A stretch of 64,000 bases of DNA from an uncultured Verrucomicrobiae bacterium (GTDB lineage Bacteria; Verrucomicrobiota; Verrucomicrobiia; Chthoniobacterales; Chthoniobacteraceae), in contig CAWIKF010000001.1 of assembly GCA_963836755.1 (NCBI GenBank), positions 640,001-704,000 on the forward strand, read 5' to 3'. The translations under genes and the position numbers were made by a program. Position 1 is the first letter of the stretch. Every line of letters begins with the position of its first letter. The notes under the pieces are model-generated. The model was not told the origin of the DNA. It did not search any database and saw nothing but the letters and a program-made list of their open reading frames with translations. This document shows positions 5,608 to 63,728 of this stretch, piece by piece.

Positions 5608-5953
5608 GTCATCAGAAAGCGCTCTCGCATCGTCGGAAACCGGTCTCACGTCATCGGAAACCGACCTCGCGTCATCGGAAACCGGTCTCGCGTCGTCGGA
5701 AACCGGTCTCGCATCGTCGGAAACCAGTCTCGCATCATCGGAAACCAGTCTCGCATCATCGGAAGCCGGTCTCGCATCGTCGGAAACCGGTCTCGCATCA
5801 TCGGAAACCAGTCTCGCATCGTCGGAAACCGGTCTCGCATCATCAGAAACCGGTCCCGCGTCATCGGAAACCCCTCTGATGCCATCGGAAATCACTTTCA
5901 GGCTATCGCAAACCGCTTTAAGCTCATCGGAGACCAAATCCGCCATCGGAAAC
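5608..5953. repeat. 21-bp tandem array #1 (~16 units, consensus RTCRTCGGAAACCGGTCTCGC)
   Basis: Units start at 5608, 5629, 5650 ... 5923; near-identical on the left, degenerate on the right. Confidence 0.95.
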
Positions 5954-14915: not shown

Positions 14916-14953
14916 AAGTGCGTGAGGCACAGGCCTAGCAAGAAAAGCCCTCT

Positions 14954-15643
14954 CTACCCGCCGACCGTGATGCTCACCGGCTTACTCCAGACGCCGACCT
15001 GCGCGTCGCCGACGATGTAGATGCCGCGATAGGTCCACTTCGTGGGCGTGGCGGGCAGGGGGGTGGTGTCGGTGTAGCCGGCGGTGGTGTCGTTGGCTAG
15101 GAAGATGAAACCTTTGCCGTCGCGATCGACTTCGAGGCGGATCATATCGAGGAATTTGCTGTTCCCACCCCAGCCCCAGTCGAGGAAAACGGTGTTGCCT
15201 TTGAGGATGGCTTTAAAGTCTGGCTGGATGGTGGACAGATCGGGGCCGGTTTGCTCGGCGCCTTCCAGGCCAAGGATGATGCCAATGGCGGGAGTGTAGT
15301 TTTTGTGAGTCTTGATGGCATTTGCCAGCGCGAGGAAGCGGGTGAGGATGCCGGCGGGCACCGAGGGAGGGAAGGCAGCGTGCTTCACGGGGATGGCCGG
15401 TTCCGTGCCGCTTTGGCCCGAGAGAGCGAGGCCTTTCCAAGCTGTCCACTGCGGCCCGGCGGAGCCCATGGTTTTGGCAAAGGTGAGAAGTTCGCGGTAA
15501 TAGGTTGCATCGGCGGCCTGCTGGGTGACGTCGGCTGCCGCGAGATTGAAAAGGGCGACGTAGCCACCGATGTTGTCGCGGAATTGCTCGAATTCGGTCG
15601 CTTTGCCGTCTTCGGTGTCGGAGAGGAAGTAATGTTTGGGCAT
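14954..15643 (-). CDS. Uncharacterised protein: helical N-domain + C-terminal FN3/Ig-like domain
   Basis: 229 aa; C-terminal W..LEVDR..F.FLA.DT..Y.D..P..W.YR..Y..G.WS..VSITV pattern; no signal peptide. Confidence 0.8.
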   Translation of the reverse strand: MPKHYFLSDTEDGKATEFEQFRDNIGGYVALFNLAAADVTQQAADATYYRELLTFAKTMGSAGPQWTAWKGLALSGQSGTEPAIPVKHAAFPPSVPAGILTRFLALANAIKTHKNYTPAIGIILGLEGAEQTGPDLSTIQPDFKAILKGNTVFLDWGWGGNSKFLDMIRLEVDRDGKGFIFLANDTTAGYTDTTPLPATPTKWTYRGIYIVGDAQVGVWSKPVSITVGG

Positions 15644-15771
15644 AATTTAGGGTGTTCTGTTTTGTTCACTGCGGGTTTCTACCCGGGAAAAGCGGCCCCG
15701 CTGAGCGTATGCCAGCGAACAAAAGACGGTTTTCCAGAGTAAAGTGGTGTTTTTCCCCGTTCAAAGCCCGC

Positions 15772-15990
15772 TCCTTGGAGGTTCCAAGGATGACTGGTGA
15801 CGTTCCACGCACGTCCGTGGAGGTTCCAAGGAGATGCGTGCAGGTTCCATGGACATCCTTGGGACCTCCAGGAACATCCATGGGAACCGCCAGGAAGTCC
15901 GTGCAGGTCCCCCGCACGTCCGCGGACGTTGGAAAACTGCCCGTGGAAGTTCGAAGAATGCCTTGGCAAGCTCCAAGGACGTCCTTGGAG
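15772..15990. repeat. 21-bp tandem array #2 (10 degenerate units plus a partial)
   Basis: Units at 15772+21n, e.g. TCCTTGGAGGTTCCAAGGATG and TCCGTGGAGGTTCCAAGGAGA; unit 1 is the palindrome TCCTTGGA-ggt-TCCAAGGA. Confidence 0.85.
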
Positions 15991-16303
15991 AATGGAAGGA
16001 GCGCCCGATTTGCGCACAAAACGCCAGAAAACCGCGGCTTTGGAGAAAGCGTAGAAAGCGCACAAAAAGCCGCCAGTGGAGCCGCCAAACCGTGGGGAAC
16101 CTCGCATCGCGAAGACGTGCCTAACAAAAGCGCTTTCACGATGGCAAGCGAATTTTTAACTCTTGTTTAAATTCTTTTTTTTCGCCGATGCGGCGGACAA
16201 ATCTCCGATCCTCGCCTTTATATAATGCGAAAAAGTTGTGTGAAAGTTCGCCGGCACATCCCTCTCCACAAAGTCGCGGGAGAGCTATACGATGCGCGGC
16301 TCC

Positions 16304-57363: not shown

Positions 57364-57369
57364 CGAGTG

Positions 57370-57428
57370 GTCAAACGGCACCCAGATCAGCTACAGGCGG
57401 AGGGCTTACCACGATTGCCGGGTTAGGC
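57370..57428 (-). other. attC-like site (59 bp)
   Basis: Minus strand GCCTAAC ... GCTGATC-tgggtgcc-GTTTGAC; CDF stop codon lies within R''; next ATG 6 bp after R'. Confidence 0.72.
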
Positions 57429-58379
57429 GCTGGCGTGGGCTTGCTCATGGTCCTCGCAATGTTGAACCTCCACTGTCACGTGGACAAGTTCCTCGTGCTC
57501 GCGAAGTAACTCTCGATAAGCGTCGGAAGATCTTGGCTCGTGCGCCACGATGCAGACGATGGCTGCAAACTTGCCCTCGCTAACCTGCCAAATGTGAAGG
57601 TCTGTGATGAGCGAGTTACCGTCGCTTTCTACTGCGCGGCGAATCTCGTCCGGCAGATCGGACGACGCCGGTGTGCGATCGAGCAGAATGCCACTCGTGA
57701 CCCGCAGAAGGCCATAAGCCCATGAGAAAACTACCACGCTGCCTAGAAGCCCAACCACCGGATCGAGCCACGAGCATCCAAAAAACTTCCCGGCGAGCAA
57801 GGCACCAATCGCTGCGAGAGTCGTGACGGCGTCCGCGAGGACATGGAGATAAGCCGCGCGCAGGTTCAGATCATGGTGATGCGCGTGGCCATGATTCCCG
57901 TGTCCATGTTCGTGATGATGAGAATGGCCGACATCGAGAAGCAACGCGCAAACCAGGTTGACCACCAAAGCGACGCACGCCACCCCGATGGCTTCGACGA
58001 AACGAATCGGCAACGGAAGAAAGAACCGATGCACAGATTCACCCGCCATGAGGAAGGCAACCACCGAGAGCACGATCGCGCTGGCAAAACCGCCTAACAC
58101 CCCCATCTTGCCCGTGCCGAAACTGTAGCTCGGATTACTCGCATGGCGGCGGGTGAAGTGGTAGGCGATCGCGGTGATGAGAAAGGCTGAAACGTGAGTG
58201 CCCATATGCCAGCCATCGGCGAGCACAGCCATTGAGTGAAAGACCATCCCTCCCACGATCTCGACCACCATCATCGTCGCTGCGATGCCGATGACGATGC
58301 GGGTGCGGCGTTCCGCTACCGATGAATCGAGCGTAAAGTTATGCGAGTGCTGCCAGCGGGTTTGGTCGGTGCGGTGCAT
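57423..58379 (-). CDS. dmeF: CDF family Co/Ni efflux transporter, DmeF-like
   Basis: ADGWHMGTH, His-rich loop, DLNLRAAYLHVLADA, DLHIWQ, HVTVE. Confidence 0.88.
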   Translation of the reverse strand: MHRTDQTRWQHSHNFTLDSSVAERRTRIVIGIAATMMVVEIVGGMVFHSMAVLADGWHMGTHVSAFLITAIAYHFTRRHASNPSYSFGTGKMGVLGGFASAIVLSVVAFLMAGESVHRFFLPLPIRFVEAIGVACVALVVNLVCALLLDVGHSHHHEHGHGNHGHAHHHDLNLRAAYLHVLADAVTTLAAIGALLAGKFFGCSWLDPVVGLLGSVVVFSWAYGLLRVTSGILLDRTPASSDLPDEIRRAVESDGNSLITDLHIWQVSEGKFAAIVCIVAHEPRSSDAYRELLREHEELVHVTVEVQHCEDHEQAHASA

Positions 58380-58422
58380 AGGATGAAAGGTAGGATGCTT
58401 TGGATGCGACGTAAAGACGTCT

Positions 58423-58464
58423 GGCTAAAAAAAGACCAGCTACAGGCGGAGCGCGTGTAAGTGT
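58423..58464 (-). other. Partial attC-like site (right half)
   Basis: Exact CAGCTACAGGCGGAG at 58437-58451, between two minus-strand genes; R boxes degenerate. Confidence 0.55.
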
Positions 58465-58731
58465 CTAGTTTTTTCTCTTTAGCTTCCCTTCTGCGGCCCT
58501 TGTCACCTCGATGAGTTCGACGCGTGTCTTATCGCCACCCTCGGTTTCGAGGACTACATTGCCAACTTCTTTTGAGTAATACTTGTGTTCTACGCTTCCC
58601 CTCTCGATTGCGGACCAATCCTTCGTCTTCACGCAGCTGGTGAACGAACCATAAGGCACCGTGACAGTTTCGCCGGTGCTCAATACTTGCCCCATGTCTT
58701 CCGCCTTGGCCTTCAGGTATTCCTGCCGGTA

Positions 58732-59303
58732 AGCCAGATGCCTGGTAGGAGAGGCCGGGGGAGGGGTGGAATCCATGGGTTTGAACGAGTAAACAGGCTG
58801 CCCCAGCCGAGACTGCCACGCGACGGGACGAGCTCGCAAGCCCGGACTGCCCCCGTTTCCGAACCCGCCCATAAACCGCATAAAAACCGCGAGCCTGCAA
58901 TATTACATGAAGCGGATGACATATCGCACGACGATCGTGCAGTATTACATCGTCACCATGCAGTGCTACATGACGACCGTGCAGTATTAGATCGCGACCA
59001 TGTTGTGCTGCATGACGACCGTGCAGTATTACACGACGACCATGTAGTGCTACATGGAGACCGCGCAGTATTACATGGCGACCATGCAGTGCTACATGAT
59101 GACCGTGCAGTATTACACGACGACCATGTAGTGCTACATGAAGGCGGCGCAGTATTACACGATGACCATGCAGTGCTACATGGAGACCGTGCAGTATTAC
59201 ATGGCGACCATGTAGTATTACATGGTGACCGTGCAGTATGACATTGCCGGACTTTTTGACCGCATCACGCCCATGTTACTCTGTAAACCGTCCGCTCTGG
59301 CCT
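58732..59303. mobile_element. 572-bp inserted segment carrying 21-bp array #3; diverged copy of 62802-63313
   Basis: Interrupts a gene precisely; AG dinucleotide at both junctions; no transposase or terminal inverted repeats. Confidence 0.7.
58897..59245. repeat. 21-bp tandem array #3 (16 units plus a partial; 42-bp higher-order period)
   Basis: Alternating GCAGTATTACATGGCGACCAT / GTAGTGCTACATGGAGACCGT-type units. Confidence 0.95.
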
Positions 59304-59603
59304 AGGTTCGCCGGGGTGAGGGTTGGATTGCATCACGATGCCCGGCTTGGCTCCGTCGATAGCAGCTTCCCATGAGCCATCTTTGCTGGCCTTCTTGCCT
59401 TTCTTGTATTCCGTCGAATCCTCGCCGAAATACCAGACATTGCCTGCCTTATCCTGAGCATACCAATCGTAGGTCTCCTCGATGAGTTGATCGTTGTGCC
59501 ACACCCGATCCCATACCAGCGATAAATACCAAGATGTCAAAAACGGTGTATCCGGCGTTGGCCTGTCTGGAATCATTCGGTGAAATCATACACGCACGGA
59601 ATC

Positions 59604-59663
59604 GCCCAGCGAGAATAACATCAGCTACAGGCGGAGCCTGTTAGCTGCAGCGCACGGTTAGGC
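59604..59663 (-). other. attC-like site (60 bp, best conserved)
   Basis: GCCTAAC-cgtgc-GCTGCAGCT-A-ACAGGC-tcc-GCCTGT-AGCTG-atgttattctc-GCTGGGC; hairpin with an unpaired base; upstream ORF stops 10 bp before R''. Confidence 0.75.
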
Positions 59664-59942
59664 GGCGGTTGGTTCATTTTTGTGCGTTGGTCACACTCTC
59701 AAGGCGATGCTGCAAAAAAGACCGATAAGGCAGGGGATGAAACTCTTCATAAAGACTTAAAGGAAGTGGCAAAGGGGTGATGTATGAGATCGTTCCTATC
59801 GCCACGCGTCCAGCAGTGGAAGCATAACTTTTTTGCCAGTAGAACCGACTGTGTTGTGAACTATTTCGTTTGACTCTGCCATGCCTTTCTCCCATTCATG
59901 GCGCTCTTCCCCTTACTCAAAGAAGCTCTCGCAGTTATTCTT

Positions 59943-62195: not shown

Positions 62196-62297
62196 TCGCG
62201 CCGTGCCCCGACGGCCTGCCATTAATAAGAGCGAGGGCCGGCATCGGCTCGCCTGAACCTGCGGTTACGTCCTGAAAAAGTCCGCAGGCAAGCGAGG

Positions 62298-62846
62298 TTA
62301 TTGCGGCCCCGACTGCTCGATATCGAGCAGCTTCGGCCCGACGCGATGGCCCACGATTTTCATGGACCAAAAGAGCATCGAGTAAAAGCCGGCGACCGCC
62401 ACCAAAGTGACACCGGCCGCGGCCCAATGGTGAGCGCGCATGCGACTGAGCCTTGGCATAAAGGCAATCATCCCGAAAAGGCTTAGCACCACGATCACCG
62501 CATCGAAAGAAGCGCGCTGCCAGTAGCTGCCGCCCAGATGCAGCCACATCCCGAATTCATCGAACGTGAGCGCCATCCCGAAGCCATACAAAAACGCCAC
62601 CCATTTTCTGCCCGACTCACCCAGCGGCACGAACAAAAGGAACGCCCCCACCGCGGAGAGCAGAAAAATCCCGTAATTGAGATGGTGAACGTGCGTCCCA
62701 CCCAGATGCAGAAAAAAGTCCGGCATCTTCTTTGTCATGATCAGGATCACCAGCACCCTCGAAGCAATGAAAGTCAGCAAAAAAGTGGTGAACACCACGC
62801 GAGCGAGATGCCTGGTAGGCGAGGCCGGGGGAGGGGTGGAATCCAT
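62298..62846 (-). CDS. Integral membrane protein of unknown function
   Basis: GGTHVHHLNYGI and ALTFDEFGMWLHL motifs; ATG of MDSTPPP at 62846. Confidence 0.8.
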   Translation of the reverse strand: MDSTPPPASPTRHLARVVFTTFLLTFIASRVLVILIMTKKMPDFFLHLGGTHVHHLNYGIFLLSAVGAFLLFVPLGESGRKWVAFLYGFGMALTFDEFGMWLHLGGSYWQRASFDAVIVVLSLFGMIAFMPRLSRMRAHHWAAAGVTLVAVAGFYSMLFWSMKIVGHRVGPKLLDIEQSGPQ

Positions 62847-62966
62847 GGATTTGAACAAGTAAACAGCCTGCCCTCGCCGAGACTGCCACGCAACGCGAGG
62901 CGCGCGCAAGCCCGGACTGCCCCCGTTTCCGAACCCGCCCATAAAGCGCATAAAAACCGCGAGCCT

Positions 62967-63253
62967 GCAGTATTACATGAAGCGGATGACATATCACACG
63001 ACGACCGTGCAGTATTACATCGTCACCATGCTTGTGCTGCATGGCGACCGTGCAGTATTACACGACGACCATGTAGTGCTACATGGAGACCGTGCAGTAT
63101 TACATGGCGACCATGCAGTGCTACATGATGACCGTGCAGTATTACATCGCGACCATGTTGTGCTGCATGACGACCGCGCAGTATCACATGACGACCATGT
63201 AGTGCTACATGGAGACCGTGCAGTATTACATGGCGACCATGCAGTATGACATT
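62967..63253. repeat. 21-bp tandem array #4 (13 units plus a partial), same family as #3
   Basis: Same units as 58897-59245; one 22-bp unit at 63030. Confidence 0.95.
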
Positions 63254-63436
63254 CGTCGGATCCTTTTTGACTGCATCAGGCGGGTTTACTCTGTTGACCG
63301 TCTGATCCGGTCTGCGTGCGGGGAATCACATTGGCCGCCCCGCGGCATTTCTGCTAAGCCTCCGGCAGGACGATCTCCGCATGCTCACGGAACAGATAAC
63401 GCCATCGACCAGGCCCACGCCAAAGTCCGTGCTCTC

Positions 63437-63503
63437 GGCGAGCATCGATTTGAAAAAATCCGTCCTCCGCCAAGATGGGCGAGCATCGATTTGAAAAAAT
63501 CCG
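63437..63503. repeat. 26-bp direct repeat, two copies 41 bp apart
   Basis: GGCGAGCATCGATTTGAAAAAATCCG at 63437 and 63478. Confidence 0.85.
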
Positions 63504-63728
63504 GCCTCCCCGAGCCTCGGCGCCACCCTATTATATAATCGCGAAAAAGTCCCATACCTCCGGCGGAATTTAGCTCGACCGCCGAGGCCGCACTCCATTA
63601 CACGGCGGCATGACGGCGAGGAAGCCAGCAGCAGCCAAAGAGCGGACAAAAATAGGCGAAACTTCTTTCGCCTTTAATTACGAACCTTCGCCTAAATCTC
63701 GTTAGGCCTAGCAACACAGTCCAAAGTG

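Follow-up and report, generated by a model that had tools for sequence, protein, structure and literature searches.

Precise insertion of an array-bearing segment into an integron-cassette remnant: a possible repair capture of a diverged neighbouring allele

Analysis of the window, the whole 64,000-nt stretch at G000:C1:640001-704000, confirmed that the 572-bp insertion at 58732-59303 is real and precise. The genome in which it lies, that of an uncultured Verrucomicrobiae bacterium, comprises 3.18 Mb in 4 contigs (58% GC, 96.1% complete). A gene next to the insertion, of patchy distribution, has two named homologs, both from Chthoniobacterales, which makes a soil verrucomicrobium the probable host. 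The insert (copy A) is a diverged copy of a nearby segment (locus B) and brings with it an array of 21-bp units, an upstream region and the beginning of a membrane-protein gene (Table 1). The best explanation that we can offer, to which we give a little short of an even chance, is that a diverged allele of locus B was captured once, by a non-homologous route, with ends set by an inverted repeat and joined by Ku/LigD.

Table 1. Positions of the insert, its target and the donor-like locus in the window
Feature	Position	Strand	Remarks
Insert, copy A, 572 bp	58732..59303		colinear with 62802-63313; left junction bridged by X2 contig
Captured first 15 codons of 62298-62846 membrane-protein gene	58732..58776	-	fused in frame to target C-half
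Captured upstream region of 62298-62846 gene	58777..58895	-	start context; putative promoter
Array, 17 units of 21 bp	58896..59252		12-bp quasi-palindrome + 9-bp spacer, alternating as 42-bp dimer
TTACTCTGT motif	59276..59284	+	in phase with array; common to many other arrays of the genome
Left inner arm, terminal inverted repeat, 6 bp	58733..58738	+	
Right inner arm, terminal inverted repeat, 6 bp	59296..59301	+	
Target AG	59304..59305	+	repeated at 58732-33, there also matching donor: 2-nt microhomology or 2-bp duplication
Target C-half, 88 codons, no stop or frameshift	58465..58731	-	exported all-beta protein family
Target middle part, ~72 codons	59304..59525	-	N-terminal ~85 residues missing; upstream limit approximate
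Start of unrelated cassette-like frame	59525..59589	-	joined out of frame to target; limit approximate
attC-like site upstream of target cassette	59600..59664	-	degenerate core; own HMM, E 8.5e-18
Decayed attC-like site after target stop codon	58415..58456	-	
Next attC-like site, same integrase-less cluster	57366..57430	-	
Locus B, donor-like segment	62802..63313		14-unit array (62966-63260) with upstream region and first 15 codons
Locus B membrane-protein gene (gene B), intact, 182 aa	62298..62846	-	no Pfam family
Left outer arm of donor inverted repeat	62796..62800	+	left behind, absent from insert
Right outer arm of donor inverted repeat	63314..63318	+	left behind, absent from insert

As an earlier, sequence-only reading of this DNA had claimed, CT on the minus strand (AG on the plus strand) is present at 58732-33 and again at 59304-05, and the insert matches 62802-63313 colinearly. 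The same reading held that removal of the insert rejoins the target without loss, unless homologs were to show extra residues missing at the join. No such residues were seen: all 120 listed homologs, the best 120 of 1056 matches, align gap-free within 10 residues of the join. In addition, the GxxM-to-YxQE spacing is 9 in the rejoined query, as it is in all 132 motif matches. From public run X2, a contig of 200 nt matches 58600-58799 exactly (0 differences) and bridges the left junction with 132 nt on the target side and 68 nt on the insert side. Among the matches listed for runs X1, X2 and X3, there is no record of the right junction and none of an empty-site joint, X1 and X3 being without coverage of the target C-half; all three belong to a single study, and their origin may be that of the assembly. 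Only at the left junction does the AG agree with the donor, which gives a junction homology of 2 nt on the left and 0 nt on the right. Further out, donor and target flanks agree at 4/15 and 5/15 bases.

The proposal that the donor was a diverged allele or old duplicate of the locus at 62802-63313 is supported both by homologs of gene B and by comparison with its X1 allele. The captured 15 codons are native to gene B, in that residues 11-20 are gap-free in 108 of 120 listed homologs, and locus B is therefore the donor side and copy A the derived copy. Over 62802-63024 (223 bp), copy A and locus B differ at 16 sites, at which the X1 allele has A's base 5 times and B's base 11 times, plus 2 changes of its own; for this allele all 26 differences over 62251-63024 were listed. 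With 13 differences from the X1 allele in the 223 bp, against 16 from the window's locus B, copy A is no closer to X1 than to locus B, which indicates that the true donor strain is not in hand. Eleven differences are private to copy A and 8 of these fall within 48 bp (P=0.007), between an unchanged block and the coding part, a clustering that is as expected if the sequence diverged under constraint at a working locus. A contig of run X3 over 63222-63457 contains A's three indels and then continues into B's flank, and sister alleles that have this upstream region in common are represented by two database proteins. Both synonymous codon differences pointed out previously are present in the sequence but do not serve as a hint of function: X1 has the insert's base at 62805, so that change arose on B's line, and the single private synonymous change that is left is uninformative on selection. 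Within the array of locus B, unit 3 has a 1-bp phase shift at window position 63031 that is absent from the X1 allele and is consistent with a 41-bp deletion.

The genome-wide check for further copies that had been recommended was productive, as it revealed a third copy (copy C; G000:C1:543879-544251). This is 91% like copy A and has a right end that is common to the base, and it is without the 150 bp adjoining gene B. A population allele of copy C from run X2 departs from copy A at the same base as copy C does, and at the right junction locus B, copy C and this X2 allele all continue with GC. Read by eye, A's proximal array units resemble those of B and its distal units those of C. A's right end lies within about 3-11 bp of the point where B and C cease to match, a coincidence that random capture does not predict and that counts against capture. 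Copy C itself is flanked by a perfect 11-bp inverted repeat that two degenerate array units make up (L122:2860-3259, G000:C1:543860-544259), A's right end falls 3 bases inside the right arm of this repeat, and a second, unrelated array is found immediately to the left of copy C. No further copies of the segment were found in 40 relatives or in two collection scans: in the DNA search of the 40 relatives the array segment was unmatched, and what did match were attC-like parts and, once, the middle part of the target, while scans with an array-dimer pattern of metagenome and genome collections, which may leave out records close to this genome, gave 0 matches each.

The target is the remnant of an integron cassette that was truncated before the insertion, and not a working gene. 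Its homologs are 220-270 aa long with an N-terminal leader, whereas the window keeps the last ~160 codons only, and a search for the missing N-terminal ~85 residues elsewhere in the genome did not find them. The out-of-frame join near 59525 is a second rearrangement in the same cassette, ~220 bp away; a second copy of the 59525-59589 frame was not found in the genome. The target cluster consists of four attC-like sites at 55.7-59.7 kb on the minus strand, and the genome has 83 attC-like matches in many clusters and one intact intI, which is located on a different contig from the target. This arrangement is a CALIN, which PMC4889954 describes as an attC cluster lacking an integrase; the insert, however, interrupts a cassette and is not one. 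The target halves contain 3 rare residues, compared with a mean of 2.4 in 31 close homologs; so few rare residues, together with codons free of stops and frameshifts, suggest that decay is recent. Taken with the clustered private changes of copy A, the lack of an excess of rare residues fits a recent insertion of a donor that had already diverged.

The in-frame chimera that had been described was confirmed in the sequence as a 103-aa fusion at 58465..58776. A model of an intact target homolog (pLDDT 85.9) features a single 15-strand beta fold, and because the insert interrupts the loop that precedes strand 10, the chimera keeps 6 of the 15 strands and is without a leader. It is probably a non-functional half fold, and it carries no sign of selection in its one private synonymous change. 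The best solved matches to the target family are exported Bacteroidales proteins (3fzx, E 6e-7, TM 0.41), while no Pfam family covers gene B, the chimera frame or either half of the target. On the capture reading, the fusion would be in frame by an accident with odds of one in three, aided by microhomology at the same codon position. Within the insert, the previous unit counts of 16 and 13 were correct as to the difference between the two arrays but not as to the numbers, which are 17 in the insert and 14 in locus B. A sigma-70 promoter scan of 58300-59800 returned 0 sites, Rfam has no family in the insert or the surrounding region, and our own attC HMM detected no attC-like site inside 58732-59303.

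The ends of copy A are non-random. The insert had been described as having no TIR, which is not quite right, as its ends carry a 6-bp inverted repeat (58733-38/59296-301) that is equalled by 0.3% of end pairs in locus B. When A's ends are joined to B's flanks, the inverted repeat extends to 11/13 (CACGC-GA-GCCAGA versus CACGC-AG-GCCAGA on the other strand), with both breakpoints at its 2x2 mismatch. A score of 11/13 is seen for 9e-5 of 171,000 breakpoint pairs, with 5 positions only reaching it, and the background over seven other window sizes is 1.5e-4 to 1.5e-2; the repeat was found post hoc, and its 11/13 depends on the donor having been reconstructed. Locus B as present in the window has a repeat of only 8/13 (background 0.02), and with the flank of copy C the repeat is 10/13 (7e-4). 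The inner right arm could stem from gene conversion by copy C. Chance explains the inverted repeat poorly. Since the outer arms were left behind, a transposon end can be dismissed; what the repeat would suit is a single strand that folds and whose loop is either cut or serves a polymerase for entry and exit. The minus-strand stem has a pairing probability of ~0.85 with 20-nt flanks, ~0.17 with 60 and 0 with 150. We also considered whether the palindromic array folds the ends together and rejected this, since 13 of 22 shuffled arrays reach an end pairing of at least 0.8. No such repeat above 8/13 was found at the ends of eight other duplicated segments, and the breakpoint motif was dismissed as a genome-wide recognition site, having 6 scattered matches, none like the target.

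In the proposed capture, the neighbouring locus, in the form of a diverged allele, would give up a free piece of 572 nt, probably from sister-strain DNA. The single strand would fold at the imperfect 13-bp inverted repeat, which would bring both breakpoints to one 2x2 internal loop, and a cut at this loop could then release the 572-nt loop with its ends kept together. Ku/LigD end-joining would paste the fragment into a break within the decaying integron cassette, where one end may anneal by the 2-nt AG and the other may join without homology, blunt or after fill-in, so that no target base would be lost. The array would be a passenger in this process. Of these steps, we infer that a single strand folded and was cut, that Ku/LigD did the joining and that the DNA was taken up from another strain. 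Ku (272 aa) and a LigD phosphoesterase-ligase (557 aa) are encoded by adjacent open frames on C2, and a 312-aa LigD polymerase domain by a separate one; LigD is therefore split, and neither part reaches the full-length NCBIfam cut-off. This stand-alone polymerase domain gene is found at L117:1459-2397 (G000:C1:540801-541739), ~2 kb from copy C. The genome also contains comEC, which supports DNA uptake only weakly, since it is present in 10 of 14 control genomes as well. A retroelement, in the sense of a reverse-transcribed copy, is not supported, with 0 matches to reverse transcriptase (PF00078) in the genome.

By this analysis, the insertion appears to work like a non-homologous end-joining (NHEJ) capture. 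In PMC6379672, a 1.3-kb heterologous fragment is captured at a chromosomal break in Sinorhizobium meliloti in a Ku/LigD-dependent manner, with 5 deletions among 23 sequenced junctions. The insertion in the window shares with that system its independence of homology (2 nt and 0 nt at the junctions), a similar fragment size and the presence of ku and ligD. It differs from the experiment described there, which used an engineered cut and compatible ends, in being a natural event with a near-self donor allele, a 2-nt microhomology at one junction and donor ends at an inverted repeat. SPDIR, in which ectopic single-stranded DNA of intra- or extragenomic origin is integrated without homology, yields microindels of 3 to about 100 bp via extended microhomologies according to 10.1101/2023.11.22.568220; this does not describe an insert of 572 bp whose flanks match at only 4/15 and 5/15 bases.

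The 21-bp array of the insert is one of many in this genome. TRF identified 65 merged arrays with a period of 20-21 or multiples (41-42 bp), palindromic units and at least 17 sequence families, a count that may include a few coding repeats and misses weaker arrays. Multi-copy families account for 42 of the 65, and an outward TTACTCTGT (one mismatch allowed, <=70 bp) accompanies 17, compared with 0.16% of random places. Nine arrays are <=2 kb from an attC-like site, a zone that takes in 4.2% of the genome (P=0.002). Many directly follow a stop codon and have no partner gene (e.g. window 5609-5936 and 15802-15896). In one small-gene family, tentatively FN3-like, an array stands 100-190 bp upstream of all 8 loci; unlike these arrays, copies A, B and C are without a partner gene, and orphans make up most of the arrays of the genome. 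At the gene-B homologs of 5 genomes and at 80 metagenome loci (many with short flanks) no such array turned up, which suggests a late arrival of the array at locus B. Of 15 TTACTCTGT motif loci in two congeneric genomes, 11 hold an array, mostly beside genes whose counterparts in the present genome lack one; two of the cases may be orthologous. A further duplicated segment, a 496-bp copy of 96% identity (L118:3214-3709, G000:C2:923713-924208), comprises an array, the upstream region and the first ~37 codons of a 250-aa gene; its donor is at L119, C2:661368-661863, and the copy is 55 bp from an attC-like site. No interrupted target is evident there, and it may thus be a deleted duplicate. An array-free stretch of 420 bp, from the 3' part of a gene for 189 aa and copied to another site (98.8% identical; C2:401148-401567/C2:1299384-1299803), indicates that fragment duplication is not confined to arrays. 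The suggestion that arrays move with flanking DNA therefore holds to the extent that they are copied to changing places, which does not make the array the driver of copying. The arrays thus change place, with neither shared ends nor an enzyme found. In the literature surveyed, which included few subscription papers, there was no description of 21-bp arrays or inverted-repeat-bounded captures in bacteria.

Several other array and cassette structures were observed. A 41-bp array is positioned directly downstream of the sole intI (C2:764695-765011) and has a sister array at C2:1315842-1316096. In the window, 63437-63707 holds a 41-bp repeat and ~200 bp ending in a GTTAGG core at the head of an integrase-less cassette cluster, and this head recurs at C2:1471390-1471660 and C2:1266891-1267125, again with integrase-less clusters; the three recurring heads are attI-like and spread through the genome. 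A unit at window 14933-16126 on the minus strand, made up of an array, the motif and a 229-aa gene with GTTAGGC upstream and GCTAGGC downstream, is like a cassette without a full attC, and a GG-N10-GC sigma-54-like spacing was noted by eye ~20 bp after its motif.

Two other explanations deserve weight alongside Ku/LigD capture, though we rate both as less probable. The somewhat stronger is a template switch in cis, in which the nascent target strand would jump via AG to an older allele of locus B, copy 572 nt and return; entry would be at the unpaired loop of the folded repeat and return beside the departure point, and locus B would later have been replaced or have diverged. Neither a free fragment nor Ku/LigD is required, the donor-like locus is 4070 bp away in the same orientation, both ends fall at one internal loop, and the same cassette has a second rearrangement 220 bp away. 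However, one junction offers no microhomology for re-priming, and the 7% divergence demands either long decay, which is at odds with 160 target codons without stop or frameshift, or later allelic replacement, which is made plausible by the 3.4% difference between locus B alleles of different strains. The published template switches listed are short or eukaryotic events. A little less probable still is that the arrays make up a mobile, non-autonomous family, one end of which is fixed just past TTACTCTGT while the other varies, moved by an enzyme of the host or of an element, in which case copy A took 150 bp of flank along by transduction. This would account for the right boundary common to three copies within a few bases, although a conserved functional limit explains that boundary equally well. 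It also draws on the multi-copy families (42/65), the outward motif (17/65), the late arrival of the array at locus B, the second copy of array, upstream region and 37 codons 55 bp from an attC-like site, and the mostly different places of arrays with the same motif in two congeneric genomes. On the other hand, the flanks of other families fade gradually and have neither ends in common nor target duplications, fragments that contain no array have been duplicated as well, and shuffling the array leaves end pairing undiminished. Nor is there a candidate enzyme, the genome having no IS110, no reverse transcriptase and one Y1 transposase far away. As regards a MITE moved by a DDE transposase, there are a 6-bp inner repeat and a possible 2-bp duplication, with the repeat extending 5 bp outside the ends in the donor; the 3 copies do not have the same two ends, one being common within a few bases and the other not.

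The remaining possibilities are far less probable. Movement of the segment into the cassette cluster by the integron integrase at secondary sites, which we regard as very improbable, is favoured by an intact intI, by the 83 attC-like matches, by a target that is itself a cassette and by the 9/65 arrays close to attC-like sites. The insert has no attC-like site, and of the three positions at which a crossover could have taken place, not one would yield G|TT on either target strand, which makes IntI unlikely and also disqualifies the insert as an integron gene cassette; moreover, a G|CTAGGC junction would require a CT that is absent from the donor copies. The sequence-only reading had speculated about a CT-core circle, mediated by an IS110 bridge recombinase such as IS621; a CT-cutting REP-associated HUH transposase could be invoked as well, and the genome encodes one Y1 transposase. 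As described in PMC11208160 and 10.64898/2026.08.31.748434, IS110/IS621 insertion resembles the present case in being scarless with CT at both junctions (minus strand here), IS621 recombining at a CT core according to PMC11208160, but differs from it in that here the second donor end has no core and there are no repeated same-end insertions. For an insert that is colinear, each of the two donor ends would have to carry the core, and the GC found instead in locus B, copy C and the X2 allele of copy C largely rules out such a circle; the IS110 recombinase domains PF01548 and PF02371 have 0 matches in the 96.1% complete genome (0/12 and 0/14 candidates), and we give the idea next to no chance. 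Least credible is a misassembly between repeated arrays, notwithstanding the three similar arrays, the right junction missing from the reads listed and three runs that are perhaps of the assembly's own origin: an exact contig spans the left junction, 11 changes within 223 bp are private to the insert, and a codon-exact join is hardly expected from an assembly error.

If Ku/LigD capture is taken further, the arrays with TTACTCTGT might in general spread as single-stranded, inverted-repeat-bounded stem-loops that are pasted into breaks by Ku/LigD, which we think improbable. Should it hold, arrays would often carry a neighbour's promoter and start codons and would seed promoter-start fusions in cassette clusters, and the insertion at 58732-59303 and the 496-bp copy at C2:923713-924208 would be two snapshots of an enzyme-light spread. 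The genome-wide array family is the part that capture leaves unexplained, and the weight of the finding is modest, as it concerns one event in a cassette under decay whose product is probably dead. Nevertheless, base-exact natural captures of <1 kb without a transposase are rarely documented in bacteria, and if inverted repeats set the ends of capture, breakpoints would be partly predictable and open to testing. With the donor next door, population alleles and intact ku and ligD, the insertion would be a clean example of repair shuffling promoters and gene starts.
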